Below, one piece after another: positions 3,745 to 58,102 of a DNA stretch of 64,000 nt (positions are counted from its first letter, which is position 1; every line of letters begins with the position of its first letter). The translations under genes were made by a program, and so were the position numbers. The notes beneath the pieces were generated by a model. It was not told the DNA's origin and ran no database searches. It saw only the letters and a list, made by a program, of their open reading frames with translations. The stretch is from the NCBI RefSeq assembly GCF_024298765.1, contig NZ_CP101210.1; one strand, written 5' to 3'. Source of the DNA: Escherichia coli. GTDB lineage: Bacteria > Pseudomonadota > Gammaproteobacteria > Enterobacterales > Enterobacteriaceae.

Positions 3745-3762
3745 TGTTTTATATGCTAAACA
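3745..3762 (-). promoter_or_regulatory. Candidate NadR operator in the nadA promoter
   Basis: TGTTTT-N6-TAAACA palindrome about 75-90 bp upstream of the nadA start, matching the TGTTTA-N6-TAAACA NadR box with one mismatch. Confidence 0.45.
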
Positions 3763-3920
3763 AGATAGTCGAATGGTGGGGAAAAGTCACTCGAATTACG
3801 TATGAGATGCCGAATGCCACACTTTGCGTCTTATTCCTCCGACGTAGAGTTGTTTACGCAGCAAACGCGGAGTATGTCATCAGGGTCAAGAATTGAAATT
3901 GAGAGATGCCTGAATAGCAA

Positions 3921-3946
3921 AAAAGCGCCTTTAGGGCGCTTTTTTG
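3921..3946 (-). terminator. Rho-independent terminator at 3' end of the lys/val tRNA operon
   Basis: Hairpin agcgccctaaaggcgct flanked by A-run/T-run immediately downstream of the last tRNA. Confidence 0.6.
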
Positions 3947-3949
3947 CAT

Positions 3950-4025
3950 TGGTGGGTCGTGCAGGATTCGAACCTGCGACCAATTGATTAAAAGTCAACT
4001 GCTCTACCAACTGAGCTAACGACCC
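3950..4025 (-). tRNA. lysQ: tRNA-Lys (UUU)
   Basis: Reverse complement gives GGGTCGTTAGCTCAGTTGGTAGAGCAGTTGACTTTTAATCAATTGGTCGCAGGTTCGAATCCTGCACGACCCACCA. Confidence 0.95.
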
Positions 4026-4058
4026 CTTGCGGGATTATGCTGCTTTAATCATTCAGGA

Positions 4059-4134
4059 TGGTGGGTCGTGCAGGATTCGAACCTGCGACCAATTGATTAA
4101 AAGTCAACTGCTCTACCAACTGAGCTAACGACCC
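4059..4134 (-). tRNA. lysZ: tRNA-Lys (UUU)
   Basis: Identical tRNA-Lys sequence, CCA encoded. Confidence 0.95.
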
Positions 4135-13873: not shown

Positions 13874-14450
13874 CATGACTCCTTGCTCATCGCATGAAGA
13901 CTCCGAGAGTGAACCCCGTTAGAAAGGGTCACACGCATGCCCCAATACAAAATTATTTGCTCGCCTCTATCGTTGCCATTTCATCAAAAGAGGAAAAGAC
14001 AATGATAAAAAAGTTACAAATGTGTTAATGAATAAACCAAATTGATCCCGTAATTATATTACGCCGCAAAATCCTTACAATAAACAGGTTTTTATTGAGC
14101 AAATTTGCATTTTTCGACAGTGATCAATTTATAGCGAAATTGTCACGATCTCACCAATTTGATCTACAACAATTTATCGTGTTTTGCAGATTTTTTTCAA
14201 GAATTAAAAATTGATTTATATCAAAATCAACCATATATGTTAATTATGTGTGAATCATGAGCCACTGGTAACTTTATTGTTAATTTATTGTAACAAAATA
14301 GCACAGTAAAATTACCCACATGGAAATATATAGATAAAAAACCAGTATTTTATTTAACAGAGCCGCTTTATCGACTTTTTATAATACTAATTAGTTAGAG
14401 TAGCTACTTTATTGCCATTTTACATAACATATTTTTATCAACGTTAATTG
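13874..14450 (-). promoter_or_regulatory. cydA upstream regulatory region (complex promoter, expected FNR/ArcA/H-NS control)
   Basis: Long AT-rich non-coding leader upstream of cydA; individual sites not resolved by eye. Confidence 0.45.
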
Positions 14451-15201
14451 ATTGTTGTCTTTATGAGCAACGTACTGTAAATCCGTCACTTATTGTTTCA
14501 TTGGTAATAATCACAAGAAGAAATAGATACCTTAGGTATAGTCAGATGGAACAAGGATTTTCAAAATAAAATATATATGGTATTAATATTTCCCGATCTG
14601 TATTCAATGATTAGCTCAAAGATTGAAAATCAAGAGAAATTGTTATAGCAGTGATACGAAACAACAAAACGGAATGATTGCCAGCCGTTAGAAAACACCG
14701 GACACTCTCGTGTAAAAAGCTACCCTGTCTATGGATATAGCGATATCAACTCATCAAGCGTGGACTGAATGATATTCAGCTCCATATGGGCGGCAACCTG
14801 GAGGATAAACATGATTTCGCCGTTGGAATCAAGGTTGTTCTGCAATATCTACCAGACTGCTTCAATTTATCTGTTTTGGCAGTGCCATAATCTTAATTTA
14901 ACTATTTGAAGATGATGATATTGTAAGATGCCAGAAATTTAGTAATCTGGAGAACCATGTTTACGATCACTAAATATTAAAGTAATAGTCGATAATTCAG
15001 TAACACATCGGGTAATATAATGTATTGATACATAATCATATTAAAAATTCGTGATTAAATAACATAAGAATATGTTTTATTATCATTAAAAAACCTTCTA
15101 TTTCCATCATCCTTAAGATAATAGAACAGTGAATGATGGATAACTTCACCAGAAAAACAAGCAAGAATATAAAATTTAAAAATATGATTCCACTTTCATT
15201 G

Positions 15202-42384: not shown

Positions 42385-42459
42385 TACTGCTCCTGAACGG
42401 TTTACAGGAGTAAGTGTAGACGTTGGGAAATGAAATTTGTGAAGTTAATCCTGTTGTAG

Positions 42460-43294
42460 CAGGGCAAGATTACGAAAGCCCGCTCCCCGTAAGGACTGAC
42501 GCCAGGTAGTTTCTGTCCATAGCTGCCCTTTCTATTCAAACGTGAAATCAATAAGTTCATCAGGGACATCACAAACAATATGAAGACGGGTTTCTTCTCT
42601 GCCGTGACTCTTTTCACTAATTGAGTAACTGTCGTGCTCTGGATTATTTAATTCTTTCAGCGGAAATTTTTCCTCAAAGGCTTTATTAAGCCGCCACCTG
42701 ATTTCCTTTTACAGCGAATAAATAATCACCTCCCTGTTTTTGTATCTTCTCTGCAATATCTTTCTGGCAACTCATCGCATCAGTTGTGATGATTTTTCCT
42801 TTAATATCCAGCATGTTAAGAAGTTCAGGGATAGCTGTAATTTCATTGGATTTCTCATCCGTCCTGATCTGTCCGATGACCAGACTGTGCATTGTTGAGA
42901 ACGCACTAATGACATGAATCGCTCCCCTGCGGCGACTCTTGTCATAAGAATGCCGGAGCGTTTTTCCATCAATTGCAATAACGTCTTTATCATCTGAAGA
43001 ATGGCAGTCACGCATCCAGTTAATAAAGCACTCGTGAAATTTTGAAGGACTGATACAGGATACAACTCTGGCGATGGTATCGTGAACAGGAATACCATTT
43101 TAAAAATCACCATATTGTTTTAAAAAATCGAGATGTGTTTCCCCAAAATCCTCTATATCTTCCCAACCATCTGCACCAGAAATAACGGCACAAATAGTCA
43201 ACAGTAGAATATCCGACAATTTATGTTCCACTTTTCCAGGATTGTCTGTAATCGGGAATAACAGAAATATGTTCCATCAATTTTTTAAGTACCA
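42460..43294 (-). pseudogene. H-repeat (ISAs1-family) transposase pseudogene, copy 1: internal deletion plus nonsense/frameshift
   Basis: Aligns to the intact copy at 45108-46244 but lacks about 330 bp near the 3' end, has the 1-bp insertion shared with copy 3, and a stop (ttttaaaa in place of ttttcaaa) near 43100. Confidence 0.85.
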
Positions 43295-43424
43295 TTTTGT
43301 TCTCCTTAATTATGTAAGGAGTATTTGATCATGTATAAGCAATAAAAAACAGCTTTAGGTAATGAGGAATATCTCAATTTTTAAACATAAAATGCGAATT
43401 GTCTAGTACAAAAAAGCAGCGTTA

Positions 43425-43531
43425 CGTGATCTTTCCCTGAGAGGTACAGGAACTGCGGGAGGAACTTTATCAGGTTAAACAGGGGTTAAGGGGATGCGGA
43501 ACGGGATGTTTAGTGTGCTGAACGAAAGCTA
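43425..43531 (+). pseudogene. SymE-like toxin gene remnant (internal deletion)
   Basis: Retains the leader and GTG start context and the 3' end of the intact copy at 46375-46725; central part deleted, early stop. Confidence 0.7.
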
Positions 43532-43587
43532 AATAATAAAAAAGCCGGGAAGATCTTATCTTTCCCGGCCATCTTGCCATACATTAA

Positions 43588-44022
43588 TTATTTATGAATA
43601 TAATATAACTGAACATCATATTCATTATCACTTAAAACTATTAGTCGATCGGGAAATGTAAATGCTAATGAAAGATCATATGTTTCATTTATCGAAAACA
43701 AACTCAATATGAAATTTGAAAAATTTTCGACATGAAGAGATATGCAAACATCTCCATTATAGAATATATTGCAAAGAATATCTTTTTTCACATTCAGTGT
43801 ACTTTCAACATCTCTCGCTAGATCATTAATATTTAAAGGTAAATTGAAAACTCTCCTTTCAATAATATTATCGGTTTTATTTATTGCCATTAGCATTTCT
43901 CGATGCCACATGAAGTCATTCTTACGTAAGAATGATACATCAAAGGAAGTGACACCATTTAATTTAGAAGCATAATCTTTTGCTCTAATTAAATTTAATT
44001 TATCTTCAAGGCTAATTTTCAT
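43588..44022 (-). CDS. Putative Rhs-toxin immunity protein (orphan cassette 1)
   Basis: 144-aa low-GC ORF starting 4 nt before the stop of the orphan toxin reading frame; typical rhs-CT/rhsI arrangement. Confidence 0.6.
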   Translation of the reverse strand: MKISLEDKLNLIRAKDYASKLNGVTSFDVSFLRKNDFMWHREMLMAINKTDNIIERRVFNLPLNINDLARDVESTLNVKKDILCNIFYNGDVCISLHVENFSNFILSLFSINETYDLSLAFTFPDRLIVLSDNEYDVQLYYIHK

Positions 44023-44470
44023 AATATATATGATGATCCTTAGTTACAGGGTCATTGATCTTCTGATATCTATCACTTTTGAAATCGTATGTTCTAGGAT
44101 CAGCGCCCGGTTTAGGTTGTCCTGCATGTGCGTGAGGGCCAGGTGCCCTAGGATCTGCCGTGTGCTCGACTACAACTTTCTTACGTCCGTAGGCATCTGT
44201 ATATTCATAATATCGCCCATGAGACCCTAAATCTTCCGAATATTTATAATTTGTTTGTCCCCTTCTTCTAGGATCATTTCCAACGGTCCATTGCCTATTA
44301 GGTTGCTGTGAACGAGGTATGCCCGCAAGATCTTTTGCTTTATTTAGTGCCTGACGACGGTTTCTTAATTCACCACATTTAAGACCAAGCGGATCTATCC
44401 AGCTTACTGGATTAGGCGCGTAAGCATATAAGTTTAGCCCCCCCGCCAGCCCTATCGGGTCGGGTTACGT
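44011..44470 (-). pseudogene. Orphan rhs C-terminal toxin remnant (no start codon; in-frame stop before the DPxGL motif)
   Basis: Reverse-strand frame reads ...[46 protein letters not shown] followed by a 125-aa unique domain ending at the immunity gene; not in the ORF track because it lacks a start. Confidence 0.7.
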
Positions 44471-44634
44471 AAATGTTCCACAGTCCGAGTCGTAGTACCT
44501 CAGAAGGTTGCAGTGCAATCCCGCCTTGCGACATCAAGGCATAGTTTCAGAAAAAGTAAGGAGCAATCACCATACCCCAATTCACTGGGTGCTAAATAAT
44601 ATCTGGTAACATCCCTTACTTCAATTCTATTTCA

Positions 44635-45030
44635 TTACAACTTCTTTACTTTCCATATTCTTTGCGCAGCTAAAAAAGATACTCCTTTGAACCAAGACGC
44701 ACATTCAATAACTTGTTCCCATGAATATATTTTATGTGAGCTAAATTTTATCGATTCATCTTGGTTCATTATCTCAATAAAATAATATCCTTTATTATAA
44801 TCTCTTTTTTCTATTCTATCTTCAGCTCTTGCCGAACGTATAGAAATAACACAATCATCTAATAAACAAAATCTTTTCTTTATAATCGCATCATCTTGGT
44901 TCCATGGATTTGTACTTGCCATTTGTTCTGATTGTTTCAGCTCATTCACTACTGTATACCAAATAGCTTCGGTATCACTTGCCTTTGCATTCTCTCTATC
45001 AGACTCGGATCTAAATATAATTTTGTCCAT
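44635..45030 (-). CDS. Hypothetical protein, possibly an orphan immunity gene
   Basis: 131-aa low-GC ORF between H-repeat copy 2 and the orphan toxin remnant; no recognisable motif. Confidence 0.4.
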   Translation of the reverse strand: MDKIIFRSESDRENAKASDTEAIWYTVVNELKQSEQMASTNPWNQDDAIIKKRFCLLDDCVISIRSARAEDRIEKRDYNKGYYFIEIMNQDESIKFSSHKIYSWEQVIECASWFKGVSFLAAQRIWKVKKL

Positions 45031-45107
45031 TTTAATAATCCAAATGTAAATTACTTAAAATACCCTCTGCCTCATTCCAGGCATTGACATGGGAACCCAG
45101 GGAAAGA

Positions 45108-46244
45108 TTACGAAAGCCCGCTCCCAGCAAGGACTGACGCCAGATAGTTTCTGTCCATGGCTGCTTTTCGCATCTTACGTCTTAACCCTGCCTTGAATAC
45201 CTTATCATTCGTCAAAATATTAATAGCGATGTGCCGTATCCCTGAAAATAATTCTGCTGCATTTCCTCTTCTTATTTTGCAGTCGTCTTCATTCATTACC
45301 ACGTCCAGACGCCAGTGCAGCTTATTCTCCACGTGCCAGTGGTTTCGGATTGCTGTGGCGAACTTCTCTGCGGTTAAATCAGCAGAACTGATATAATATC
45401 TGACCGTCATTTCTGGCTCTTTCTTTTGTTCTGCTATTATTGACCGAAAGGAGACTGCCACGCATAATTTCTTCAGACCTTTCCATTCAAACGTGAAATC
45501 AATAAGTTCATCAGGGACATCGCAAACAATATGAAGACGGATTTCTTCTCTGCCGTGACTTTTTTCACTAATTGCGTAACTGTCATGCTCTGGATTATTT
45601 AATTCTTTCAGTGGGAATTTTTCCTCAAAGGCTTTATTAAGCCGCCCCTGATTTCCTTTTACAGCGAATAAATAATCACCGCCCTGTTTTTGTATCTTCT
45701 CTGCGATATCTTTCTGGCACCCCATCGCATCAGTTGTGATAATTTTTCCTTTAATATCCAACATGTTAAGAAGTTCAGGGATAGCTGTGATCTCATTGGA
45801 TTTCTCATCCGTCCTGATCTGTCCGATGACCAGACTGTGCATTGTTGAGAACGCACTAATGACATGAATCGCTCCCCTGCGGCGACTCTTGTCATAAGAA
45901 TGCCGGAGCGTTTTTCCATCAATTGCAATAACGTCTTTATCATCTGAAGAATGGCAGTCACGCATCCAGTTAATAAAGCACTCGTGAAATTTTGCAGGAC
46001 TGATACAGGATACAACTCTGGCAATGGTATCGTGAACAGGAATACCATTTTCAAAATCACCATATTGCTTCAAAAAATCGAGATGTGTTTCCCCAAAATC
46101 CTCTATATCTTCCCAGCCTTCTGCACAAGAAATAACGGCACAAATAGTCAACAGTAGAATATCCGACAATTTATGTTCCACTTTCCAGGCTTGTCTGTAA
46201 TCGGGGATAATAGAAATATGTTCCATCAATTTTTTAAGTTCCAT
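45108..46244 (-). CDS. H-repeat-associated protein (ISAs1-family transposase), intact copy 2
   Basis: 378-aa ORF of the YhhI/YdcC/YbfD H-rpt type; element left end about 45094 (aagattacgaaagcccgc). Confidence 0.9.
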
Positions 46245-46374
46245 TTTGTTCTCCTTAATTATGTAAGGAGTATTTGACCATGTATACGCAATAAAAAACA
46301 GCTTCAGGTAATGAGGAATATCTCAATTTTTAAACATAAAATGCGAATTATTTAGTACAAAAAAGCAGCGTTAC

Positions 46375-46725
46375 GTGATCTTTCCCTGGTTAATCATGGC
46401 TGAACACGATATTACGCCAGAAATCACCATTTCCAAAACACAGCGCCGCTATAAAGTCGGCTATGTCAGAGCCCGCCACATAAACAGCAAAACCTACATG
46501 ACCACGTACTACTCACGACACCCCAGCCTGAACCTCAAGGGCGACTGGCTGAAAGAGGCCGGATTTGATACCGGGCGGGGTGTCACGGTGAAGATTTCGG
46601 AGGGGTGCCTGACCATCATCGCTGACAGTGACGAGGTGCAGGAACTGCGGGAGGAACTTTATCAGGTTAAACAGGTGGTTAAGGGGATGCGGAGCGGGAT
46701 GTTTAGTGTGCTGAACGATAATTAA
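46375..46725 (+). CDS. SymE-like toxin (AbrB/SpoVT-fold type I toxin family), intact copy
   Basis: 116-aa ORF from GTG (or 109 aa from ATG at 46396); contains the SymE-family core LKGDWLKEAGFDTGRGVTVKISEGCLTI. Confidence 0.75.
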   Translation: MIFPWLIMAEHDITPEITISKTQRRYKVGYVRARHINSKTYMTTYYSRHPSLNLKGDWLKEAGFDTGRGVTVKISEGCLTIIADSDEVQELREELYQVKQVVKGMRSGMFSVLNDN

Positions 46726-46734
46726 ATAATAAAA

Positions 46735-46765
46735 AGCCGGGAAGATTTAATTTTCTTTCCGGCTT
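46735..46765 (-). terminator. Hairpin terminator between the SymE-like gene and the immunity gene
   Basis: gccgggaaga...tctttccggc hairpin flanked by an A-run on the plus strand (U-run for the minus-strand transcript); same motif at 43540-43572 and 51983-52018. Confidence 0.55.
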
Positions 46766-46776
46766 TGTCTAATTAA

Positions 46777-47172
46777 TTATTCAGGAAATTTTCTATTTTT
46801 ATATGATGACCATAAGTGAGTGATCGACCAAGAGTTTTCCTTTCCGAGTACAAAACTTTTGGAGATTATCTCAATATCATCAGATATACGCGAAGATATT
46901 TCAGAATTATTAATCACCCTGAATGAGTATTTAAATGCCTTTTCTCGCAAGGAATCAATAAACTCAATATCATCATCCTGAAAACTTTCCTTATCTAATG
47001 AATTAAACTCACTCATCCAGCAATCATCAAACTCCGGTTCATCTCTTGAGTCTAATGCACTATCAACATTTAATGATTTAAGAAAATCAAAAAATGACGG
47101 GGTGGATAAACAGTTATCAATTTCAATTAGCTTATTATTAATCATCACATTAACCCTTGTCCTTTGAGCCAA
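46777..47172 (-). CDS. Putative Rhs-toxin immunity protein (orphan cassette 2)
   Basis: 131-aa acidic low-GC ORF immediately 3' of and overlapping the GHH-type orphan toxin. Confidence 0.6.
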   Translation of the reverse strand: MAQRTRVNVMINNKLIEIDNCLSTPSFFDFLKSLNVDSALDSRDEPEFDDCWMSEFNSLDKESFQDDDIEFIDSLREKAFKYSFRVINNSEISSRISDDIEIISKSFVLGKENSWSITHLWSSYKNRKFPE

Positions 47173-47790
47173 ACCTCTATTAAATCAACAGCCTTGGATG
47201 GTGTCACATTAGTACCTAGCGTATAAGTTCCATTTGGAGATTTAACATCAACTCTGATGTCATCTAATTTTGAATACGCTTTTCTGTAAGCATCAAATAA
47301 CTCTTTATCCGAACCAAGGAAATCACCTTGTCTTGGACCTATCACATCTCGTTCCGCATGATGTAAACGCCAGTGATTATGTTCTGGATTTTCTCCTCTA
47401 GGGAATAATGTTGGGCGAGTTTTATCAGATCGGGAAACTTCAAACGGACGTCCTTTAGATTTACGAACCGCAGGAACATGATGTCCAGATTCACTCACGC
47501 CCATACACTTCTTCGTTAATCCAAGGGGATCGATCCAGCTTAACGGATTCGGTGCATAAGCATACAGGTTTAACCCGCCTCTTAGCCCTATCGGGTCCGT
47601 TACCATGAACCGCCCGACATCCGGATCATAGTACCTGTGCAGATTGTAATGCAGCCCCGTTTCCCTGTCGAGGTACTGTCCCTGGTAGCGCAGGTTCTGC
47701 TCCACCCCGCCGTGGTCCTTCTCCTGTATCGTGTTACCCCAGACCTGATACCCCGTCTCCCACACGATTTTCCCGTCACTGTCCGTCATC
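47145..47790 (-). CDS. Orphan rhs C-terminal fragment with GHH-signature HNH/EndoVII-like nuclease toxin domain
   Basis: Core end ([38 protein letters not shown]) followed by a unique domain containing SGHHVPAV and EHNHWRLHH; 5' end truncated by the H-repeat copy 3 insertion; the track Met is fortuitous. Confidence 0.65.
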
Positions 47791-47802
47791 TCCAGGGCAA
47801 GA

Positions 47803-48940
47803 TTACGAAAGCCCGCACCCCGCAAGGACTGACGCCAGATAGTTTCTGTCCATGGCTGCTTTTCGCATCTTACGTCTTAACCCTGCCTTGAATACCTTAT
47901 CATTCGTCAAAATATTAATAGCGATGTGCCGTATCCCTGAAAATAATTCTGCTGCATTTCCTCTTCTTATTTTGCAGTCGTCTTCATTCATTACCACGTC
48001 CAGACGCCAGTGCAGCTTATTCTCCACGTGCCAGTGATTTCGGATCGCTGTGGCGAACTTTTCTGCGGTTAAATCAGCAGAACTGATATAATATCTGACC
48101 GTCATTTCTGGCTCTTTCTTTTGTTCTGCTATTATGGACCGAAAGGAGACTGCCACGCATAATTTCTTCAGTCCTTTCCATTCAAACGTGAAATCAATAA
48201 GTTCATCAGGGACATCACAAACAATATGAAGACGGGTTTCTTCTCTGCCGTGACTCTTTTCACTAATTGAGTAACTGTCGTGCTCTGGATTATTTAATTC
48301 TTTCAGCGGAAATTTTTCCTCAAAGGCTTTATTAAGCCGCCACCTGATTTCCTTTTACAGCGAATAAATAATCACCTCCCTGTTTTTGTATCTTCTCTGC
48401 AATATCTTTCTGGCAACTCATCGCATCAGTTGTGATGATTTTTCCTTTAATATCCAGCATGTTAAGAAGTTCAGGGATAGCTGTAATTTCATTGGATTTC
48501 TCATCCGTCCTGATCTGTCCGATGACCAGACTGTGCATTGTTGAGAACGCACTAATGACATGAATCGCTCCCCTGCGGCGACTCTTGTCATAAGAATGCC
48601 GGAGCGTTTTTCCATCAATTGCAATAACGTCTTTATCATCTGAAGAATGGCAGTCACGCATCCAGTTAATAAAGCACTCGTGAAATTTTGCAGGACTGAT
48701 ACAGGATACAACTCTGGCAATGGTATCGTGAACAGGAATACCATTTTCAAAATCACCATATTGCTTCAAAAAATCGAGATGTGTTTCCCCAAAATCCTCT
48801 ATATCTTCCCAGCCTTCTGCACCAGAAATAACGGCACAAATAGTCAACAGTAGAATATCCGACAATTTATGTTCCACTTTCCAGGCTTGTCTGTAATCGG
48901 GGACAATAGAAATATGTTCCATCAATTTTTTAAGTTCCAT
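47803..48940 (-). pseudogene. H-repeat (ISAs1-family) transposase pseudogene, copy 3 (frameshifted)
   Basis: Split into two ORFs (47803-48156 and 48332-48940) by a 1-bp insertion (aagccgccacctg versus aagccgcccctg in the intact copy). Confidence 0.85.
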
Positions 48941-49080
48941 TTTGTTCTCCTTAATTATGTAAGGAGTATTTGATCATGTATAAGCAATAAAAAACAGCTT
49001 TAGGTAATGAGGAATATCTCAAATCTTAAACATAAAATGCCAATTATTTAGTACAAAAAAGTAGCGTTACGTGATCTTTC

Positions 49081-49570
49081 CCTAAAACGCAGACCCAGTT
49101 GTGCATAGTACACATGGTACGCAACAGCCTGCGGTTCGTGACGTGGAAAGACTATAAAGCGGTAACCCGTGACCTGAAACAGGTTTACCGCGCGGCCACG
49201 GAAGAAGGCGTGTTGCAGGCGCTGGATGCGTTCGGGAAGGAATGGGATGCACGGTACCCGCAGATAAGTCGCAGCTGGCGGGCAAACTGACCGAATGTTG
49301 CCACCTTCTTCGTGTACCCGGAGGCGATCCGAAAGGTTATCTACACCACTAACGCAATCGAATCGCTGAATAGCGTCATCAGACATGCGATAAAGAAAAG
49401 GAAAGTGTTCCCGACAGATGAATCGGTGAAAAAAGTGGTGTGGCTGGCTATCCAGTCAGCCTCACAGAAATGGACGATGCCACTTCAGGACTAGCGGATA
49501 GCCATGAGTCGCTTTATTATCGAGTTCGGTGACCGCCTTGACGGTCACTTCTGAGAAAGGCATTTACACA
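49081..49570 (+). mobile_element. IS256-family (mutator-type) transposase gene remnant, 5'-truncated and frameshifted
   Basis: ORFs 49099-49290 and 49312-49494 encode the C-terminal part of an IS256-type transposase (...YPQISRSWRAN / IRKVIYTTNAIESLNSVIRHAIKKRKVFPTDESV...); begins abruptly at the shared leader sequence. Confidence 0.75.
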
Positions 49571-49619
49571 GAATGATGGACAGGCTCAACGGGAAGGCTA
49601 CATGCCTTCCCATTTTATA

Positions 49620-49946
49620 TTAATCACCCGGCTTCTCCCAACATTTTATCTTTTCTATTTCTCTCTCAATATCATCCATATCATCATCTCCAAGATCGGT
49701 ATTAAAATTTTCAGTAATAACCCTTCTTATTTCAGCCAACCGATGTGTAATATTTTTATCATCAATAAATTTAGTGGTTTCTTTAAAGTAAGAATTCAAC
49801 AATTTATCATCAATAACGTTCTGCTCTATACCATTGAAATAATACCTTGCAATATTCTTAAGTGATATCAATATGTACTCTACCTCACTTAGAATATAAA
49901 GGGCATCCTTCCCGGGTATATTAATTACATCATTGTTTTTATTCAT
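49620..49946 (-). CDS. Putative Rhs-toxin immunity protein (orphan cassette 3)
   Basis: 108-aa acidic low-GC ORF 1 nt downstream of the 601-aa orphan rhs. Confidence 0.6.
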   Translation of the reverse strand: MNKNNDVINIPGKDALYILSEVEYILISLKNIARYYFNGIEQNVIDDKLLNSYFKETTKFIDDKNITHRLAEIRRVITENFNTDLGDDDMDDIEREIEKIKCWEKPGD

Positions 49947-49947
49947 A

Positions 49948-51753
49948 TTATTTACGCCGAGTTATTTTTGCATTATCAGAAAGAACAATATCACCTTTCA
50001 CAGTCAATTCATCTATATGGTATCGAGGGTTTGTTACCCACTCTAATTGCTCGTTAGGTACATCTGTTTCCACATAATCTCTACCTTTCCCACGACCTAT
50101 TTGATATTTCGCCTCTATGTCTACTTGACTGAGTGGTTTTTTATTCGCAGGTTCCAAATATACACGACCGTTATCATGCGCCTTAATTATCCCACTTTCA
50201 GCAATCGCATTTGAACCTTTACGATTAGTATAATGCCGCACACGAGTAGTTCCATTACAGAGCTCTTTTTTTAATCCGAGTGGATCAATATATTTCAGCG
50301 GATTAGGCGCATAAGCATATAAGTTCAACCCACCCGCCAGCCCTATCGGATCCGTTACAATGAACCGCCCGACATCCGGATCATAGTACCTGTGCAGATT
50401 GTAATGCAGCCCTGTTTCCCTGTCGAGGTACTGTCCCTGGTAGCGCAGGTTCTGCTCCACCCTGCCGTGGTCCTTCTCCTGTATCGTGTTACCCCAGACC
50501 TGATACCCCGTCTCCCACACGATTTTCCCGTCACTGTCCGTCATCTCTTCCGGCGCGCCGTTCACATCCGTGTGAAAATACAGTATCCGGTTCGGGCCCT
50601 CTTTGCCCGCCTTATCCACCCGCGCCAGCGGTTCATAACTCCCCGGGTCCCTGTAGATGTACAGGCTGTCTGTTCCCTCCGGCCTGCTCTCCTGCGCCAG
50701 CCGCATTCCGTCCCATAAAAATGCCGTCCGGTTGTACGGTTTACCGTCAGGGCTGATGTGCTGTTTTTCCGTCCGCCTCCCCAGCGCATCGTACACATAC
50801 CGGTACGTTCCCCGCGCTGTCGTCACTTCCACCATCCGGTGTTCCGCATCATAACGGTAACTCTGCGTGCCGCTCCGCCCCTCCTTTTCCACCGCACGGC
50901 CAAATTCGTCGTAACGGTAGTGCACACCACGGTAAGACATCAGCCGGTTGAACGGCACCACGCTGTTTTCTGCCGTGGCCCTTTCCCCCGCGCGCCGCCC
51001 CAGCAGGTTTCCCGCCGCGTCGTACTGCCAGCTCGCCAGATACCCCTCATCCTCCGAGCGGCACGCCGTGATGCGCCCCGTGGGGTCGTAGAAGTAATCC
51101 GTTTCCCCCCGCCGGCTGTGCCGCGTCTTCAGCAGTTCATCCTCGCCACTGTAGCTGTACTGCCGGTCCGTGAACGTCTCCGGTACCACCCCGCGCATCC
51201 CGCTGTATGTCTCCCTGCGCTTCAGCCGCCCGGCGGGGTCGTAAAGCTGCCGCGTGCTCAGTCGCCCCTGACTTCTGAGCACTTCACGGTGCAGGGCGTC
51301 ACGAGTGAACTCGCTGATGACCTCCCGGTCCAGATTTATCTGCTGGAGATGGCCGCTGCCGTAGTACAGATGACGCTGCGTTCTGCCGTCCGGAAAGGTG
51401 GTGGCTGTCCGGTTGCTGAGTTCATCGTACTGATGGGTCAGGACGCCCTGCGCCGTCTCCTCAGTCAGCATCCGCCCCAGTCTGTCGTAACTGAAACGGA
51501 TAATCTCCGGTGCGTCTGTTTCCCCGGCATCCGACCGTCGGCGGCGGATTTCCAGTAACTGGTCTGCCGCATCATGGACGTATTCCGTACGGCTATCGGC
51601 TGTCTCCTTTGCCGTGAGCCGGCCCGCCGCATCACGTGCCAGCCGGTGGCGGATTTCACCGCCCCGGTCCCCGGTGAACACCACTTCCGTGACCGCGTTC
51701 AGCGCGTTGTAGCGGTACGTCTGGCGGCAGCCGTCGTGCTGCCAGCGCAGCAT
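49948..51753 (-). CDS. Orphan rhs fragment: about 480 aa of Rhs core plus a distinct C-terminal toxin domain
   Basis: YD-repeat core near-identical to the main rhs, then DPIGLAGG...DPLGL and a unique roughly 108-aa tail (KKELCNGTTRVRHYTNRKGSNAIAESGII...); rhs homology starts at DGCRQTYRY, so the track Met is fortuitous. Confidence 0.8.
   Translation of the reverse strand: MLRWQHDGCRQTYRYNALNAVTEVVFTGDRGGEIRHRLARDAAGRLTAKETADSRTEYVHDAADQLLEIRRRRSDAGETDAPEIIRFSYDRLGRMLTEETAQGVLTHQYDELSNRTATTFPDGRTQRHLYYGSGHLQQINLDREVISEFTRDALHREVLRSQGRLSTRQLYDPAGRLKRRETYSGMRGVVPETFTDRQYSYSGEDELLKTRHSRRGETDYFYDPTGRITACRSEDEGYLASWQYDAAGNLLGRRAGERATAENSVVPFNRLMSYRGVHYRYDEFGRAVEKEGRSGTQSYRYDAEHRMVEVTTARGTYRYVYDALGRRTEKQHISPDGKPYNRTAFLWDGMRLAQESRPEGTDSLYIYRDPGSYEPLARVDKAGKEGPNRILYFHTDVNGAPEEMTDSDGKIVWETGYQVWGNTIQEKDHGRVEQNLRYQGQYLDRETGLHYNLHRYYDPDVGRFIVTDPIGLAGGLNLYAYAPNPLKYIDPLGLKKELCNGTTRVRHYTNRKGSNAIAESGIIKAHDNGRVYLEPANKKPLSQVDIEAKYQIGRGKGRDYVETDVPNEQLEWVTNPRYHIDELTVKGDIVLSDNAKITRRK
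50362..51735. repeat. 1.37-kb direct repeat, copy A (orphan rhs core)
   Basis: Essentially identical to 52880-54253 (offset 2518 bp); the antisense track ORFs 50392-50718 and 50758-51558 recur identically at 52910-53236 and 53276-54076. Confidence 0.9.
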
Positions 51754-51774
51754 CTGCCCAACCGCAGCGACACG

Positions 51775-51978
51775 CCGGTGATCAAAATCAGCGCCAAATG
51801 GCTGAGAGAAGCGGGATTTGAGATCGGCACGGGCGTTACCGTGAAGATCTCGGAAGGCTGCCTGATCCTGCTTGCAGATAACAACGGAGTACAGGAACTG
51901 CGCAGGGAACTTTATCAGGTTAAACAGTCTGTTAAGGGGATGCGGAACGGGATGTTTAGTATGCTGAACGATAATTAA
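51775..51978 (+). pseudogene. SymE-like toxin gene 3' fragment
   Basis: Encodes ...IKISAKWLREAGFEIGTGVTVKISEGCLILLADNNGVQELRRELYQVKQSVKGMRNGMFSMLNDN; 5' part replaced by the orphan rhs junction. Confidence 0.7.
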
Positions 51979-52043
51979 ATAATAAAAAGCCGGGAAGATT
52001 TAATTTCTTACCCGGCTTTTGATAACTTAATAATATTATAATC

Positions 52044-52424
52044 CTAAATCAATCTTTTTTTTAATTCCCTTATTTCAGGAGTTAATGCAAAACTGTCTTC
52101 TAAAGATTCGTCATCCAAGGCCCAGTAATTAATAAGATCTATATGATTTTTATAATTATCAAGCAGAGTGTTGAGTGCTTTTACAATAACTTTATCTGAA
52201 GGAGGTACTCCAGAAGATAATAAATCATTACAGACATCAAGGGCTAAAGTCATTAATTCATTCTTCCCTTTTTGTGAGTAGCCATTATTTAAATATGCAG
52301 CAATATATTTACTTAACCACTCTTTAGTTCGATATTTTTCAGGCAGTTCATAAGCCCAATCTTGTGTAAACTTATCACTCACTGGTACACCAAGTTCACT
52401 ACAGATTTTATCTATTTCATTCAT
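52044..52424 (-). CDS. Putative immunity protein for the main Rhs toxin
   Basis: 126-aa low-GC ORF 18 nt downstream of the main rhs stop. Confidence 0.65.
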   Translation of the reverse strand: MNEIDKICSELGVPVSDKFTQDWAYELPEKYRTKEWLSKYIAAYLNNGYSQKGKNELMTLALDVCNDLLSSGVPPSDKVIVKALNTLLDNYKNHIDLINYWALDDESLEDSFALTPEIRELKKRLI

Positions 52425-52441
52425 ATATATCCTTCATTATT

Positions 52442-55400
52442 TTAGTTGTCGTGTGATGAATTGAATGGGAACGATGTACGTACAGAACCGTCGGGTTTTA
52501 CAACAACCCTTGCCATATCTGGAACTACCTCTGTCCCATCAGGTAAATAACCTCGACTTTTTATATTTGTAGGCAATGGCACATCATGCACACCTGGTCC
52601 TTTTTTGGCAACAGAAGCAATAAAATCAGCAGCAGAATTATCATCGAGATATTGTCCAACTTGATGACCTTTATTTCTGGCACGATCAATTAACTGATTT
52701 GGTTTCATTTTCTGTCCGTGTTCAGAAAAGGTGTGACCGTATGTAGGCTTACTTTTTGGATTTCCCCATTTGAAGTCAGATTTAGGACACAATCCAAGTG
52801 GGTCGATCCATGACAGTGGATTAGGTGCATACTGATATAAGTTTAACCCGCCTCTCAGCCCTATCGGGTCCGTTACCATGAACCGCCCGACATCCGGATC
52901 ATAGTACCTGTGCAGATTGTAATGCAGTCCCGTTTCCCTGTCGAGGTACTGTCCCTGGTAGCGCAGGTTCTGCGCCACCCCGCCGTGGTCCTTCTCCTGT
53001 ATCGTGTTACCCCAGACCTGATACCCCGTCTCCCACACGATTTTCCCGTCACTGTCCGTCATCTCTTCCGGCGCGCCGTTCACATCCGTGTGAAAATACA
53101 GTATCCGGTTCGGGCCCTCTTTGCCCGCCTTATCCACCCGCGCCAGCGGTTCATAACTCCCCGGGTCCCTGTAGATGTACAGGCTGTCTGTTCCCTCCGG
53201 CCTGCTCTCCTGCGCCAGCCGCATTCCGTCCCATAAAAATGCCGTCCGGTTGTACGGTTTACCGTCAGGGCTGATGTGCTGTTTTTCCGTCCGCCTCCCC
53301 AGCGCATCGTACACATACCGGTACGTTCCCCGCGCTGTCGTCACTTCCACCATCCGGTGTTCCGCATCATAACGGTAACTCTGCGTGCCGCTCCGCCCCT
53401 CCTTTTCCACCGCACGGCCAAATTCGTCGTAACGGTAGTGCACACCACGGTAAGACATCAGCCGGTTGAACGGCACCACGCTGTTTTCTGCCGTGGCCCT
53501 TTCCCCCGCGCGCCGCCCCAGCAGGTTTCCCGCCGCGTCGTACTGCCAGCTCGCCAGATACCCCTCATCCTCCGAGCGGCACGCCGTGATGCGCCCCGTG
53601 GGGTCGTAGAAGTAATCCGTTTCCCCCCGCCGGCTGTGCCGCGTCTTCAGCAGTTCATCCTCGCCACTGTAGCTGTACTGCCGGTCCGTGAACGTCTCCG
53701 GTACCACCCCGCGCATCCCGCTGTATGTCTCCCTGCGCTTCAGCCGCCCGGCGGGGTCGTAAAGCTGCCGCGTGCTCAGTCGCCCCTGACTTCTGAGCAC
53801 TTCACGGTGCAGGGCGTCACGAGTGAACTCGCTGATGACCTCCCGGTCCAGATTTATCTGCTGGAGATGGCCGCTGCCGTAGTACAGATGACGCTGCGTT
53901 CTGCCGTCCGGAAAGGTGGTGGCTGTCCGGTTGCTGAGTTCATCGTACTGATGGGTCAGGACGCCCTGCGCCGTCTCCTCAGTCAGCATCCGCCCCAGTC
54001 TGTCGTAACTGAAACGGATAATCTCCGGTGCGTCTGTTTCCCCGGCATCCGACCGTCGGCGGCGGATTTCCAGTAACTGGTCTGCCGCATCATGGACGTA
54101 TTCCGTACGGCTATCGGCTGTCTCCTTTGCCGTGAGCCGGCCCGCCGCATCACGTGCCAGCCGGTGGCGGATTTCACCGCCCCGGTCCCCGGTGAACACC
54201 ACTTCCGTGACCGCGTTCAGCGCGTTGTAGCGGTACGTCTGGCGGCAGCCGTCCGGATTTATCTGCTCCGCCAGACGGTCCAGCACGTCATGGCGGAACC
54301 GGTAGCTTTCTCCGTTCTCGTTTGTCAGCGTGACCAGACGCCCGTAAGCATCGTACCCGAACGCCGTCCTGCGCCCCGTCGCGTCTGTCCGGCTGCGCAC
54401 CCGGCCCTGCCCGTCCCGCTGCCAGCGCGTTATCCTCCCCATCGGGCTGGTGTACTTCACCAGCCTGCCCGCCGCGTCCGACTGGTAATTCACCGTGCGG
54501 CCGTCCGCCAGTATCACCTCCGTCAGGTGGCCGCTGTCGTCATACCCGTAGCGCGTGCTGTGGCTCTGCGCGTCTGTCATCCGTATCAGCCGCGTGCGTT
54601 CGTCGTAGAACCAGGCCGTCTGCGAGCCGGAACAGTCCGTGTGCCGCATGAGCTGCCCGTCTTCGTTCCACTGAAGGTATTTATTCCCCCCGCGCGCATC
54701 GGTTATCTGCACCACCTGGCCGTGGCGGTCATACTGATACCGGGTGTTCTGCTGCAGCGGGTCGGTCACCGCAAGAAGATTGCCGCGTTCATCGTACTCA
54801 CAGCACCAGCTGTTCCCCGCCGCGTCCACCTCCGTTTCCGGCTGGTGCCACACCGGGTGCCACTGTGTCTGTGCCACCCGCCCCAGCGGGTCGTGCGTCT
54901 CCGTGATATGCCCCTGCCGGTCATACACATAGCGCCATTTGCCGCCCTGCGCATCGGTCATTCCCAGTAACAGCCGTTCTTCGTCGCTCCAGCGGAACGT
55001 CGTCACCTGCCCGGCTTCGTCCTGGTACGCCGTCACCTGATTCTGCGCGTCCCACTGATGATAACGCGTGCGCCCCAGCCCGTCCGTCACGCACAGCCTG
55101 CGTGACGCCAGGCTCCACGCCAGCCGGTACTGTTCACCGCTGTCCGTGTGGTGCCCCGTCACCCGCCACGCTGCGTCATCCGGGCCTTCATACCAGCTCC
55201 ACTGGTAATAATACCCTTCGCCGCCCGGCTGGCGGTGCAGGGTCATGCAGTGGTTTTCGTCGTAAGCAAACTCGCGCAGCAGGTGTCCCGTGCTGTCGTA
55301 CACGCCGTTCAGGTCGCCGGCCTCGTCATAGCGGTAACGACGCAGCAGTAAAGGAGCCGTCTCAGGGAAATGCTGATAAATCTGTGTCACCCGCCGGGGA

Positions 55401-57100
55401 TGCGCCGCCAGTTCATAATGCAGACGGATGCACGGACGCTGCTGTTCACCGCTGATTTGCGTGATGCGCCCCAGCTCGTCGTAGTACAGATTCAGACAGT
55501 TGCTGTTGCGGTCGCCCAGCATTTTCAGCCGCTGGCGCTGCGGGTGATGCGGGTCGGCTTCAAACAGAAAAAACTGCCCGTCATCGCTGCTGATAAGCCA
55601 GTGCCCCTGCTCACCCCGCCTTACCGCCAGTCCTTCGCCGGGGCTGTAAAACCCGCTCCCCGGCAGCACGGCCTCCATATCCAGGCGTCGCCCCATGCCC
55701 GACACAAAGGTCATGCAGTTTTCGTCAGCAGTACCCGGCGTGCGCCCGAGGCTGACTTCATACATCACGCTCCAGCCCTGCCCGAACATCCCTTCCGTGC
55801 GGTCGTCACGACTGCTGTACACGCGCTGCCAGTCCAGCGGAAAGTGGCCCGGCAGACTGAAATCGAAGTCATCGTCATCGGCCAGATATTTGGCTCCGGT
55901 GGCGGCATTGACCGGATGCGGAAGGGCACTGATGGCCTTCTGCGTCATCACCCCCATCCCGACACTGGCAGCAAAACAGGCGATTTTAGAAAGCATTTTG
56001 CCCGGGCGAAGAAACATCAGCGCCACGGTTGCCACCAGGGTTATCTGCGACCTGCCGCTTCTGATATCCCTGACCACCAGTAACGGACCGCCAATGCGGA
56101 CATCCGGTGACACAAACGCCCCGTTCCCCGGCTCATTCACCACCCTGGCCTCGCAGGTGCAGCGTGCCCCGCTGCGTGCCGCCGGCTGGCTGTTGATACG
56201 CACATCCCGCGCGCCTTCCGCGATATATTCCGCTGCGGGCGGTTCATCATCGCCTTTGAACAGATTACTGATGCTGCCAATAACCGCATTCACTCCCTGA
56301 AAGGCGGTTTCCAGCATACCGTCCGGACTCAGCAGGTTAAGGGCCGTTCCCAGGGGGTCATCCAGAAAGGCGGCTTTTTTTTGTGCGAGAAACTGCGTCA
56401 GTGAGGAGGGATGTTTATGGCAGTCGATTTTATCGTCAGGGGTCGGGGTGGAGCCCGGGGCCGCACTGGCCACGGTGGGCTGCCATAGTTCCGACACAAA
56501 ATGTGTCACGCCATCCACCATTTCAGAACGCCCTTCTTCCGTACTGAGCTGGTCGTGCAGCGCCCGGGACATCAGCACAGGCCCTGTCACCGGGTTAACC
56601 GCCAGGGCTATGGCCCCCGCCATTTCCAGATATTCCCCGGCCACATCCAGGAACGTTCTGGCATCCTCCTGACGCTGCGCTTCTTCCTGTTCCGCCTTCG
56701 CCTGCGCCTCCTGCGCCTCAATGTCCTGCCGCGATGCCGCAGTCGCCGCGGCCCGCGCGGCAGGTTTGCTGTTGATCCATGTGTCGCCAGAGCCGGTGAG
56801 GATGTAACCTTCAATCTGAGGCGGGAAAAGCATATTTGCGAGGTCTGAACAGACTTCGCTGACCGTGTCTGTCACGCCGGTGTACACCATCGCCACACCC
56901 GCCACAAAACCGGTCAGCACGACGGCCGTGCACCCCATCGTGATCCCCACTGACGCCGCCAGTAACGAGGTTGTGCCGACAATGAGGGCATCAATAACGA
57001 CATTTGCGGCCACCTCCAGCACCGCCCCCAGCACATCTGCCATAAACGACGTATGCAGCAGGGCATCACCCTGCCTTGCCGCCCAGAATGCCTCTTCCAT
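52442..57100 (-). CDS. Full-length Rhs polymorphic toxin with N-terminal prePAAR-like motif and hydrophobic segment (T6SS effector-like), YD-repeat shell and variable C-terminal toxin domain
   Basis: 1552-aa ORF; N-terminus MEEAFWAARQGDALLH fits AARxxDxxxH, followed by about 55 hydrophobic residues and PAAR-containing segments; YD repeats; core ends PxxxxDPxGL (WIDPLGL) about 115 aa before the stop. Confidence 0.85.
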   Translation of the reverse strand: MEEAFWAARQGDALLHTSFMADVLGAVLEVAANVVIDALIVGTTSLLAASVGITMGCTAVVLTGFVAGVAMVYTGVTDTVSEVCSDLANMLFPPQIEGYILTGSGDTWINSKPAARAAATAASRQDIEAQEAQAKAEQEEAQRQEDARTFLDVAGEYLEMAGAIALAVNPVTGPVLMSRALHDQLSTEEGRSEMVDGVTHFVSELWQPTVASAAPGSTPTPDDKIDCHKHPSSLTQFLAQKKAAFLDDPLGTALNLLSPDGMLETAFQGVNAVIGSISNLFKGDDEPPAAEYIAEGARDVRINSQPAARSGARCTCEARVVNEPGNGAFVSPDVRIGGPLLVVRDIRSGRSQITLVATVALMFLRPGKMLSKIACFAASVGMGVMTQKAISALPHPVNAATGAKYLADDDDFDFSLPGHFPLDWQRVYSSRDDRTEGMFGQGWSVMYEVSLGRTPGTADENCMTFVSGMGRRLDMEAVLPGSGFYSPGEGLAVRRGEQGHWLISSDDGQFFLFEADPHHPQRQRLKMLGDRNSNCLNLYYDELGRITQISGEQQRPCIRLHYELAAHPRRVTQIYQHFPETAPLLLRRYRYDEAGDLNGVYDSTGHLLREFAYDENHCMTLHRQPGGEGYYYQWSWYEGPDDAAWRVTGHHTDSGEQYRLAWSLASRRLCVTDGLGRTRYHQWDAQNQVTAYQDEAGQVTTFRWSDEERLLLGMTDAQGGKWRYVYDRQGHITETHDPLGRVAQTQWHPVWHQPETEVDAAGNSWCCEYDERGNLLAVTDPLQQNTRYQYDRHGQVVQITDARGGNKYLQWNEDGQLMRHTDCSGSQTAWFYDERTRLIRMTDAQSHSTRYGYDDSGHLTEVILADGRTVNYQSDAAGRLVKYTSPMGRITRWQRDGQGRVRSRTDATGRRTAFGYDAYGRLVTLTNENGESYRFRHDVLDRLAEQINPDGCRQTYRYNALNAVTEVVFTGDRGGEIRHRLARDAAGRLTAKETADSRTEYVHDAADQLLEIRRRRSDAGETDAPEIIRFSYDRLGRMLTEETAQGVLTHQYDELSNRTATTFPDGRTQRHLYYGSGHLQQINLDREVISEFTRDALHREVLRSQGRLSTRQLYDPAGRLKRRETYSGMRGVVPETFTDRQYSYSGEDELLKTRHSRRGETDYFYDPTGRITACRSEDEGYLASWQYDAAGNLLGRRAGERATAENSVVPFNRLMSYRGVHYRYDEFGRAVEKEGRSGTQSYRYDAEHRMVEVTTARGTYRYVYDALGRRTEKQHISPDGKPYNRTAFLWDGMRLAQESRPEGTDSLYIYRDPGSYEPLARVDKAGKEGPNRILYFHTDVNGAPEEMTDSDGKIVWETGYQVWGNTIQEKDHGGVAQNLRYQGQYLDRETGLHYNLHRYYDPDVGRFMVTDPIGLRGGLNLYQYAPNPLSWIDPLGLCPKSDFKWGNPKSKPTYGHTFSEHGQKMKPNQLIDRARNKGHQVGQYLDDNSAADFIASVAKKGPGVHDVPLPTNIKSRGYLPDGTEVVPDMARVVVKPDGSVRTSFPFNSSHDN
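52880..54253. repeat. 1.37-kb direct repeat, copy B (main rhs core)
   Basis: Essentially identical to 50362-51735. Confidence 0.9.
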
Positions 57101-57118
57101 GTCCCGTTCCCTGTGTGA

Positions 57119-57349
57119 TTAATTCGTCCCGGCTTCCTGCCGCATCCTGAAGCGCAGATTCTTTTTAATTTCAGCCCAGCGCGTCATATCAGCCGGGGTC
57201 AGCGGTGTGGTTCGGGCGTAGGTGAAGGCCATCATGACCCGCTCACCCGGCAATACAAATGCCACCTGACACTGGTACACCTGCTCGTTACCCCGGAGAA
57301 ACTGGCTCTGTATTTGCAAACCGCCTCATTGAGATAATATTCCGTCATA
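57119..57349 (-). pseudogene. Possible degenerate Eag-type (DUF1795-like) chaperone gene remnant upstream of rhs
   Basis: ATG at 57347-57349 opens MTEYYLNEAV... (resembles the DUF1795 N-terminus) but stops after 38 codons; a second frame continues 66 codons to 57119; total length is about half that of an intact Eag gene. Confidence 0.25.
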
Positions 57350-58102
57350 ATAGAAGTCGTCCTTTTTAATAAATGAATTATTTATTGACAGGTTCTGTTT
57401 TTTAATCATGAATGTAATGTCTATCACCGCTTTACAGCACTCTTTATCTTTCAAGCCGTAATCACTAATAACATTAAGCAATTACCCATATTTACAATGA
57501 CCGGAACTGATATGCCGTTATGTATTTAACAATCCCAACATATTCACCATACAAATAAAATCACGAGTAACAAACACACTACCGCCTCCATATAAAAAAT
57601 GGACAGCTTATAAAATTGCATCTTGCATAGAAAGGGCTGAGATATCGAGTGTATTTTAATTATCAACTATAAATGTTGAATATTTTCATTAACAGAAACA
57701 CATCTTATCCCATTAGATATGTTAACAATCAATTATTCTTAACATATCACTAAAGTATATATTACTCTCTTTACTATCTGTTTTTATTGCGGTAGCGATA
57801 TTAATAGCAAAATTCGGAATTTATTTAGATGCTGGAATAAGAAAAAGTGATGGCGGCTTTCTCACCTTACCCTGAAGTTTCAGGAAAGTGTGTAAGGAAG
57901 GATGCAACCTAACTGGAGATTTCTGAGGATCTAGTTGCTTAGAGCGACAATGAAGGTGAACGCATCCAGAGTAGTCCTATGAAAGGATACTATTGAAAAT
58001 TGATGCTAAAACAGTGATTAAATGAACAACACCATGGAACCCGTTGATTCAAAACGCCTAAACCAGCCCCCTGATACGAGGCTGGCTTAAACGCGCAGGC
58101 AA

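Follow-up and report, generated by a model that had tools for sequence, protein, structure and literature searches.

Gene order at the ybfA-rhs locus

The window analyzed here, a 64,000-nt stretch of the Escherichia coli contig NZ_CP101210.1 (assembly GCF_024298765.1), contains an AT-rich tract lying between the core gene ybfA and an eag-rhs module in which eag has decayed. On the minus strand, the order is ybfA (58309-58103), the tract itself, a decayed eag gene (57348-57119), rhs (57100-52442), and then a series of immunity and orphan modules, with kdpFABC residing on the plus strand and directed away. The ybfA gene is a 68-aa ORF of the core genome, 98% identical to its K-12 counterpart and annotated as a "YbfA family protein" in every related genome. 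It is the upstream neighbor of the tract and shares the orientation of the genes downstream of it. The same region is found at 100% identity in strain 104, in APEC O2-211, and in many poultry and human isolates, and PGAP places no annotation within the tract in any of the E. coli genomes returned by our searches.

An initial sequence-only reading had placed a non-coding tract at 57350-58100, between the start of rhs and ybfA. The ybfA side of this description holds, but the other side does not, as the tract is bounded by the eag start codon at 57348 rather than by the rhs start at 57100. Its true limits are therefore 57349 and 58102, a span of 754 bp between the start codon of eag and the stop codon of ybfA. 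The eag pseudogene and a vgrG relic, both on the rhs side, had been missed in that reading.

The GC content of positions 57350-58100 is 0.348, compared with 0.504 for the whole window, and only 3.0% of 750-bp windows across the 64,000 nt are equally or more AT-rich. A 200-bp profile shows values of 0.28-0.33 over 57300-57900, climbing to 0.39-0.50 near ybfA, and values of 0.58-0.68 in the adjacent rhs core. The marked AT-richness originally reported, relative both to the rhs core and to the surrounding DNA, is thus borne out by the profile. Likewise, there is no ORF of at least 60 aa inside the tract, the longest being 51 aa. By this measure, only two ORF-free stretches in the window, the cydA upstream region and a tRNA cluster, exceed the present one (57320-58102, 783 bp), which thus ranks third. 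At 35% GC, such a lack of ORFs is what chance predicts, and it therefore shows only that a gene is absent and is not in itself a signal.

The tract begins at the edge of a genomic island

Alignment with genomes that differ at this locus reveals an abrupt boundary immediately beyond ybfA. Homology to K-12 stops at position 58099, at the sequence TGATTGC, 4 nt past the ybfA stop codon. Homology to CFT073, in which the site is empty and the gap between ybfA and ybgA is only 100 bp, stops at 58098 and restarts at 42435. These breakpoints place the core/island junction at 58098-58099, 4-5 nt past the ybfA stop, and define an island of 15.7 kb (42436-58097) that takes the place of 44 bp of CFT073 sequence, including the native ybfA terminator.

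The distribution of the flanking sequences among 5426 complete E. coli genomes is consistent with this assignment. Megablast searches matched the ybfA side in 5424 of these genomes, with the conserved match ending at 58098-58099, and matched the tract in only 145 to 212, with 145 genomes covering the whole query. The central portion of the tract (57428-58053), considered below, is carried by 198 of the 5426, always at the ybfA/eag-rhs locus and always unannotated. The junction also coincides with a fall in GC content from approximately 0.50 to approximately 0.30, and genes for ISAs1-family transposases are annotated inside the island. The sudden loss of homology, the patchy distribution, and the compositional shift accompanied by mobility genes together confirm the proposal that this is the boundary of an acquired island. 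By these sequence comparisons, the tract is the ybfA-proximal end of an rhs island, and most E. coli either lack this island or have a different one at the same position.

The first feature on the island side of the junction is a minus-strand hairpin (58054-58094) with a 17-bp stem, which is recovered in both single-sequence and consensus folds. Conservation within the tract peaks here, with a fraction of 0.95 of the alignment columns invariant, and in a more distant haplotype (L025) the stem is kept and the loop is changed. The U-tract that follows is weak, as the T-run is short or interrupted, and a terminator scan made no call at this position. At the 3′ side of ybfA, K-12 and CFT073 carry a different, canonical terminator. 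Judging from its position and fold, the hairpin is probably a leaky, island-borne replacement for the native ybfA terminator.

Remnants of a vgrG-eag-rhs operon

The opposite end of the tract is recognizable by comparison with two canonical vgrG-eag-rhs clusters (L008 and L009), in which an intact vgrG lies 46-50 bp ahead of eag within a single operon. These clusters are homologous to the proximal 80 bp of the tract, to the eag start, and to the prePAAR-containing Rhs protein, with 76-79% identity at the junction. Minus-strand positions 57349-57396 align with the 46-50-bp spacer of these clusters and include a ribosome-binding site for eag (AAGGA, 57360-57364). Immediately beyond this former spacer, also on the minus strand, nucleotides 57397-57427 encode AVIDITFMIKK, which aligns with the VgrG C-terminus LAIDVAFMTKK; the segment thus corresponds to the last ~10 codons of vgrG, from which the stop codon has been lost. 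Nucleotide homology to the vgrG-eag junction of the two clusters ends at approximately 57428. In contrast to the canonical arrangement, only 31 nt of vgrG survive here, its place is occupied by 620 bp of AT-rich DNA unrelated to it, and eag is frameshifted.

The decayed state of eag, which corresponds to a DcrB/DUF1795 chaperone gene, is evident from alignment of the minus-strand pseudogene (57119-57348) with intact 150-aa genes in two other haplotypes (L003 and L004). Whereas every haplotype retains the start codon at 57348, a 223-bp deletion between positions 57318 and 57319 places the first 10 codons out of frame with the last 66 codons. Of the 127 positions in the Pfam DcrB model, the remnant covers no more than 77-126, as opposed to a match over the whole model (2e-18) for the intact L003 gene, and it is labeled by PGAP as "DcrB-related protein, incomplete." The deletion junction occurs in 96 genomes, or about half of the 198 carriers. 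Strain 104 contains a second match to the query representing this junction.

The rhs gene downstream of the tract (52442-57100, minus strand) is full length by both ORF and annotation, encoding 1552 aa. The N-terminus of its product contains the sequence AARQGDALLH, which conforms to the prePAAR motif AARxxDxxxH (PMC7773334) and is followed by a hydrophobic stretch. Effectors bearing this motif depend on a cognate Eag chaperone both to remain stable and to be delivered (PMC7773334). What is present at this locus is therefore not an intact vgrG-eag-rhs module of a type VI secretion system (T6SS), as the prePAAR motif is retained, vgrG is represented by ~31 nt, and eag is frameshifted. The vgrG relic and the old vgrG-eag spacer suggest that the eag-rhs module originates from a vgrG-eag-rhs operon out of which it was cut, and we infer that it came away without vgrG and without the promoter upstream of that operon. 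Since eag is frameshifted and no vgrG is adjacent, Rhs is probably not deliverable, barring a substitute paralogous eag elsewhere in the genome. Given the sequence of the locus, the Rhs toxin encoded here is probably poorly expressed, unstable, or undeliverable.

An orphan AT-rich spacer

Between the vgrG relic and the hairpin lies an orphan AT-rich spacer of ~620 bp (57428-58053), which is present in a single copy. Searches of phages and of true plasmids yielded no matches to this spacer, and a plasmid origin was set aside when the single match labeled as a plasmid proved to be a 4.9-Mb chromosome record. Two scans of species-representative genomes returned only two chance 19-mers, and the seven contigs returned by a metagenome scan all carry the spacer within an identical E. 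coli context. Compared with other parts of the island, with vgrG clusters, and with the K-12 rhsC and O157 loci, the spacer showed no similarity at either the nucleotide or the translated level. Accordingly, tblastx and blastn searches gave no support to the spacer being a relic of the island's own modules or of the K-12 rhsC locus, and the idea that it is a degenerate vgrG was rejected after tblastn detected nothing past the 31-nt relic.

The tract diverges at a near-neutral rate

The mode of evolution of the tract was examined by comparing six complete haplotypes, a number small enough that short functional elements may have escaped notice. These haplotypes differ at 4-15% of aligned sites and by indels of 10, 11, and 27 bp. 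For the comparisons of the window with L003 and L004, mismatch within the tract amounts to 10.2% and 13.3%, respectively, close to the values for synonymous sites of kdpA and of the rhs 5′ region, which flank it, in these pairs (pS 0.095-0.099). The adjacent core region between ybfA and kdpF, which is intergenic and regulatory, differs by only 2-3% in these pairs. Taken more broadly, haplotype mismatch is 10-13%, in keeping with a pS of 0.095-0.13 for kdpA and rhs, and the ybfA-kdpF region differs by only 2-4%. In other carriers, ISEc1 has inserted at two sites in the tract and ISKpn26 at a third, and coverage of the orphan spacer is not contiguous in 53 of the 198 carriers. Divergence at the synonymous rate, together with the indels and IS insertions, indicates that there is little constraint on the sequence of the tract. 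Its length is nearly full in all six complete haplotypes (754-784 bp), and blocks such as 57700-57843 are ~90% invariant.

The substitution pattern bears on the origin of the AT-richness itself. Polarized by majority rule, which is a crude procedure, the singleton substitutions are almost in balance, comprising 35 GC-to-AT and 28 AT-to-GC changes, and imply an equilibrium GC content of ~0.29, which is close to the value of 0.34 actually observed. With an equilibrium this low, neutral decay alone would account for the base composition, and a foreign origin is not required. On this sequence evidence, the AT-richness of the tract could reflect mutational decay in DNA free of constraint just as well as acquisition from a foreign source.

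Promoter-like sites and the potential for H-NS binding

The sequence-only reading had presumed that the tract contains the rhs promoter and had likened it to targets of H-NS silencing. The strongest form of this view, namely that the tract is a dedicated regulatory region combining the rhs promoter with a nucleation site from which H-NS silences the rhs operon, is a possibility that we consider doubtful, though it is the most credible of the alternatives. Its appeal derives in part from location, as the tract immediately precedes eag-rhs and shares its orientation, and in part from the retention of its length across haplotypes. Against it stands the rate at which the tract diverges, which matches that of synonymous sites and is unlike that of the adjacent kdp/ybfA regulatory region. 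Moreover, IS elements break the tract in about one in four carriers, with nothing to suggest that such insertions are selected against, and the native context of the module is a vgrG operon that leaves only 46-50 bp ahead of eag.

The promoter evidence is similarly divided. The best sigma-70-like candidate on the minus strand (57377-57405) has the form TTAAAA-17-AATAAT and was identified both by a consensus scan and as the top-scoring site (10.2) of a position weight matrix (PWM), although it is weak. The matrix, a rough, home-made one, finds four sites with scores of 9-10.2 on the minus strand within 0.78 kb, none of them strong, where about one would be expected from the window average, and this excess favors a regulatory role. 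The consensus scan argues in the other direction, as it finds one site compared with 4.0 ± 2.2 in shuffled sequences. The best candidate is located within the old vgrG-eag junction, and its spacing is not conserved, being altered by a 5-nt indel in L003 and L004. A promoter for rhs within the tract is thus plausible, with the site at 57377-57405 as a candidate only, and read-through from ybfA past the weak hairpin would be an equally viable source of the transcript.

With regard to H-NS, the composition of the tract is that expected of a target: it is 65% AT, compared with 50% for the window, the frequency of TpA steps is about twice that of the window (0.099 versus 0.048), and A/T tracts are more abundant (1.7 versus 1.0 per 100 bp). 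There is no corresponding enrichment of sequences resembling the high-affinity H-NS motif TCGATAAATT, as the tract contains two sites with up to two mismatches and dinucleotide shuffles contain 2.0 ± 1.4. Nor is curvature unusual, the mean bend being 19.7 degrees in the tract and 18.1 degrees in the window under a rough wedge model. The curvature profile suggested at the outset as a check on H-NS targeting therefore reveals an average tract and lends no support to that idea, and the lack of any excess in either motif or curvature counts against a dedicated nucleation site.

Related loci offer some precedent for silencing. In K-12, genomic SELEX has assigned H-NS sites to the upstream spacers of both rhsD and rhsE (PMC3946193), and these spacers also have constitutive promoters, which favors a regulatory role for the tract. 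The rhs/T6SS island of Salmonella (SPI-6) is silenced by H-NS, at least as summarized in a later account (PMC7043789, citing Brunet 2015). In CFT073, a strain for which H-NS ChIP-seq data exist, the site is empty at this locus, and only ~33% of the lineage-specific genes of that strain are bound by H-NS (PMC9765446). By analogy with the related loci and on the basis of its composition, coating of the tract by H-NS is plausible and, we predict, likely.

Search for decayed or hidden genes

The tract had been described as non-coding, and several approaches agree with that description. Peptides from all six frames gave no match above threshold to any family in Pfam or NCBIfam, no annotated homologue was recovered, and even the best frame exhibits a pN/pS of ~0.9. 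No conserved coding gene, the finding that would have contradicted the original description, emerged from the family, homologue, or substitution analyses.

That best frame nevertheless forms the core of a second alternative, in which the orphan spacer is a graveyard of one or more decayed coding sequences, for example a membrane protein related to the N-terminus of PBP1b, or an old rhs immunity or orphan module. The plus-strand frame at 57726-57872 has a sub-threshold match to the NCBIfam model PRK09506 (PBP1b N-terminus; E = 0.0018, 16 bits against a cut-off of 1120). A tblastn search with K-12 MrcB aligns 35 aa at 48.6% identity, with E = 1.3e-4 when the tract is the target and 0.011 when the whole window is. 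The resemblance falls in the transmembrane and juxtamembrane segment of MrcB, and the frame is open to the same stop codon in five of the six complete haplotypes as well as in L025. It is also the case that rhs islands grow by stacking AT-rich toxin and immunity modules. However, the MrcB similarity is borderline when one allows for the at least 10 peptides compared and for the post hoc choice among them, it owes something to transmembrane-like composition, and tblastn finds nothing past those 35 residues. The frame itself has no ATG, GTG, or TTG start, is interrupted by a stop codon in L002 and by a 10-nt deletion in L005, and exhibits a pN/pS of 0.91 across five haplotypes. A word-indexed search of 5.8 billion proteins produced no homologue, and a phmmer search of 1.84 billion representatives produced a single match, a contig-edge ORF of the same locus whose N-terminus appears to derive from a Nextera-like adapter. 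Taken together, the missing start, the stop and frameshift in two haplotypes, the pN/pS value, and the lack of any real homologue dismiss this frame as a live gene, and we treat its likeness to PBP1b as either chance or an old relic. As the spacer also shows no translated similarity to the genes of the island or to the K-12 rhsC locus, its derivation from decayed coding sequence is improbable.

Part of the orphan spacer could in principle provide a lineage-specific control element for an rhs gene that has neither vgrG nor chaperone, either as an operator at a palindrome or as a small hydrophobic peptide or RNA arising from ~57544-57875. The palindrome (57716-57748, 33 bp) is near perfect and consists of GATATGTTAACAAT and ATTCTTAACATATC, 14-nt arms that are 93% complementary and separated by a 5-nt gap. 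It sits in the best-conserved AT-rich block and is present in all six haplotypes, although in two of them its symmetry is broken by a G-to-A change with no compensatory substitution. The minus-strand mini-frames at ~57544-57591, among them a frame of 15 codons, MEAVVCLLLVILFVW, adjoin a GGAGG sequence, and in every haplotype these frames are uninterrupted and the GGAGG is unchanged. Short open frames are, however, expected by chance. We rejected the mini-frames as genes given that the changes within them are mostly non-synonymous and that ISEc1 disrupts this region in many other genomes.

Searches for structured RNA gave a similar result. The fold of the minus strand has a z-score of -3.7, a value obtained with only 20 shuffles and including the ybfA hairpin. 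In the six-haplotype alignment, RNAalifold returns a penalizing covariation term of +3.29 with compensatory changes at 4 of 212 pairs, and thus no covariation support. At E ≤ 1, Rfam yields a chance miRNA hit that falls within ybfA and nothing in the tract, and a search of the whole window at the gathering threshold likewise leaves the tract empty. A scan for terminator-like sites inside the tract was likewise negative. The tract therefore qualifies neither as a protein-coding gene nor as a structured non-coding RNA, and a hidden live element, whether an unannotated small RNA or small protein, such as one from the MEAVVCLLLVILFVW frame on the minus strand, or an operator at the palindrome, is very improbable. 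Were such an element to exist in the orphan spacer, it would set the timing of an otherwise silent rhs toxin.

Discussion

The reading that we favor, with a probability of roughly three in four, is that the tract is non-coding, near-neutral junction DNA at the edge of an rhs island, assembled from four pieces. The piece nearest ybfA would be the hairpin standing in for the native ybfA terminator, and the second would be the ~620 bp of orphan AT-rich DNA, evolving at a roughly neutral rate. The third appears to be the 31-nt relic of the vgrG 3′ end, and the last the old vgrG-eag spacer bearing the ribosome-binding site of the now frameshifted eag gene. Excision of the module from a vgrG-eag-rhs operon would have removed its native upstream promoter, such that transcription of eag and rhs might now begin at weak promoter-like sites in the spacer or arrive by read-through of the ybfA hairpin. 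As suggested by composition and by analogy with other rhs and T6SS loci, coating of the spacer by H-NS or StpA would keep rhs quiet.

Several known systems resemble this arrangement in part. The K-12 ybfA-rhsC spacer (242 bp) shares its position, orientation, and AT-richness, begins 4 nt past the ybfA stop codon, and has its own ybfA terminator. Genomic SELEX lists a constitutive promoter for a minor sigma factor within that spacer (PMC5493296). It differs from the tract in having no homology to it past the ybfA stop and only one third of its length, and in leading straight into the PAAR-type rhsC without an eag gene or vgrG relic. The K-12 rhsD and rhsE spacers and the SPI-6 island are likewise horizontally variable loci with AT-rich DNA ahead of the rhs genes, but their sequences are unrelated to the tract and the likeness is purely compositional. 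Within the window itself, the cydA upstream region (13877-15035) is also a long, ORF-free, low-GC stretch upstream of an operon, and the lowest-GC 750-bp segment of the window begins there (13931, 29% GC). The cydA upstream region is a densely used regulatory region, at which ArcA, Fnr, and H-NS act. It belongs to the core genome, in contrast to the tract, which is lineage-specific and neutrally evolving.

The tract is thus an ordinary, essentially unconstrained junction spacer that contains gene relics, and represents an example, not described before, of a familiar type of sequence. Its importance is mostly one of annotation, as the position at which the rhs island ends beside ybfA is now precisely fixed and the gene for the cognate chaperone, eag, is recognized as dead in about half of the carriers. 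More broadly, an AT-rich tract at the edge of an island need not mark foreign DNA or a regulatory hub, and the pattern observed here fits neutral decay toward the AT-biased equilibrium of E. coli.

Origin of the eag-rhs module

In the tract separating ybfA from eag, 31 nt on the minus strand (window 57397-57427) survive as a relic of the vgrG 3′ end; their translation, AVIDITFMIKK, can be aligned with LAIDVAFMTKK*. This relic indicates that the eag-rhs module next to ybfA arose by excision from a vgrG-eag-rhs operon.

Sequence features and IS insertions in the spacer

A near-perfect palindrome with 14-nt arms and a 5-nt gap (57716-57748) is kept in all haplotypes while the rest of the spacer evolves neutrally, and it may be a protein-binding site. 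At 58032/58033, the window haplotype and that of L023, a related locus, lack 27 bp. The equivalent position in another such locus, L003, carries these 27 bp as a perfect hairpin with 12-bp arms (ACGTCTTCCATG...CATGGAAGACGT), as do other haplotypes, and the loss looks like a palindrome-mediated deletion.

The plus strand of the tract also contains a hydrophobic 49-codon stop-to-stop frame (57726-57872) with similarity to the transmembrane and juxtamembrane segment of PBP1b/MrcB (residues 69-103), which is borderline by both hmmscan (E = 0.0018) and tblastn against the window (E = 0.011). This frame has no start codon and a pN/pS of 0.91, and it could be a relic or a chance occurrence. Its sole database match is a 61-aa 'protein' from L025, a contig of public assembly GCA_013369175.2 that stops within the tract. 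The terminal 65 nt of this contig (L025 1-65) resemble a Nextera adapter (GTCTCGCGGGCTCGGAGATGTGTCTCAGAGACAG), and the N-terminus of the 'protein' is the gene caller's translation of this adapter-like segment.

ISEc1, an ISAs1-family element of the H-repeat type associated with rhs, interrupts the tract in other genomes at two separate positions, one near window 57574 and the other at 57596-57605, the latter with a duplication of about 10 bp. In another genome, ISKpn26 interrupts the tract near ybfA (L011, transposase gene at 3140-4120). Loci with an interrupted tract include L002 (7710-9000) and L006 (about 1580-3000), and one IS insertion in the tract has produced a chimeric 'hypothetical protein' annotation.

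Other features of the window

Within the rhs island, amid ISAs1-family copies, there is a strong minus-strand Rfam match (46467-46595; 117.6 bits versus a gathering score of 51) to isrA, an Hfq-binding sRNA encoded on a Salmonella island. A SymE-family type I toxin gene (51736-51978, plus strand; annotated via L001 3637-3879) is located on the opposite strand, with the main rhs immunity gene on one side and the orphan rhs fragment on the other; L002 likewise has a SymE gene, at the far end of its island.

The longest ORF-free stretch in the window (13877-15035, 1159 bp) overlaps its lowest-GC 750-bp segment (29% GC, starting at 13931). Given its position upstream of a cydA-like 523-aa ORF, this stretch presumably corresponds to the long regulatory region known for cydAB.

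Loss of the eag chaperone

Upstream of rhs, the minus-strand eag (DcrB/DUF1795) chaperone gene (57119-57348) is frameshifted after codon 10 by a 223-bp internal deletion at 57318/57319. The deletion junction is shared by 96 of the 5426 genomes, and these extend to a haplotype in which substitutions separate the tract from that of the window by about 4%, along with several indels. With eag a pseudogene, this prePAAR-type Rhs is without its cognate chaperone.
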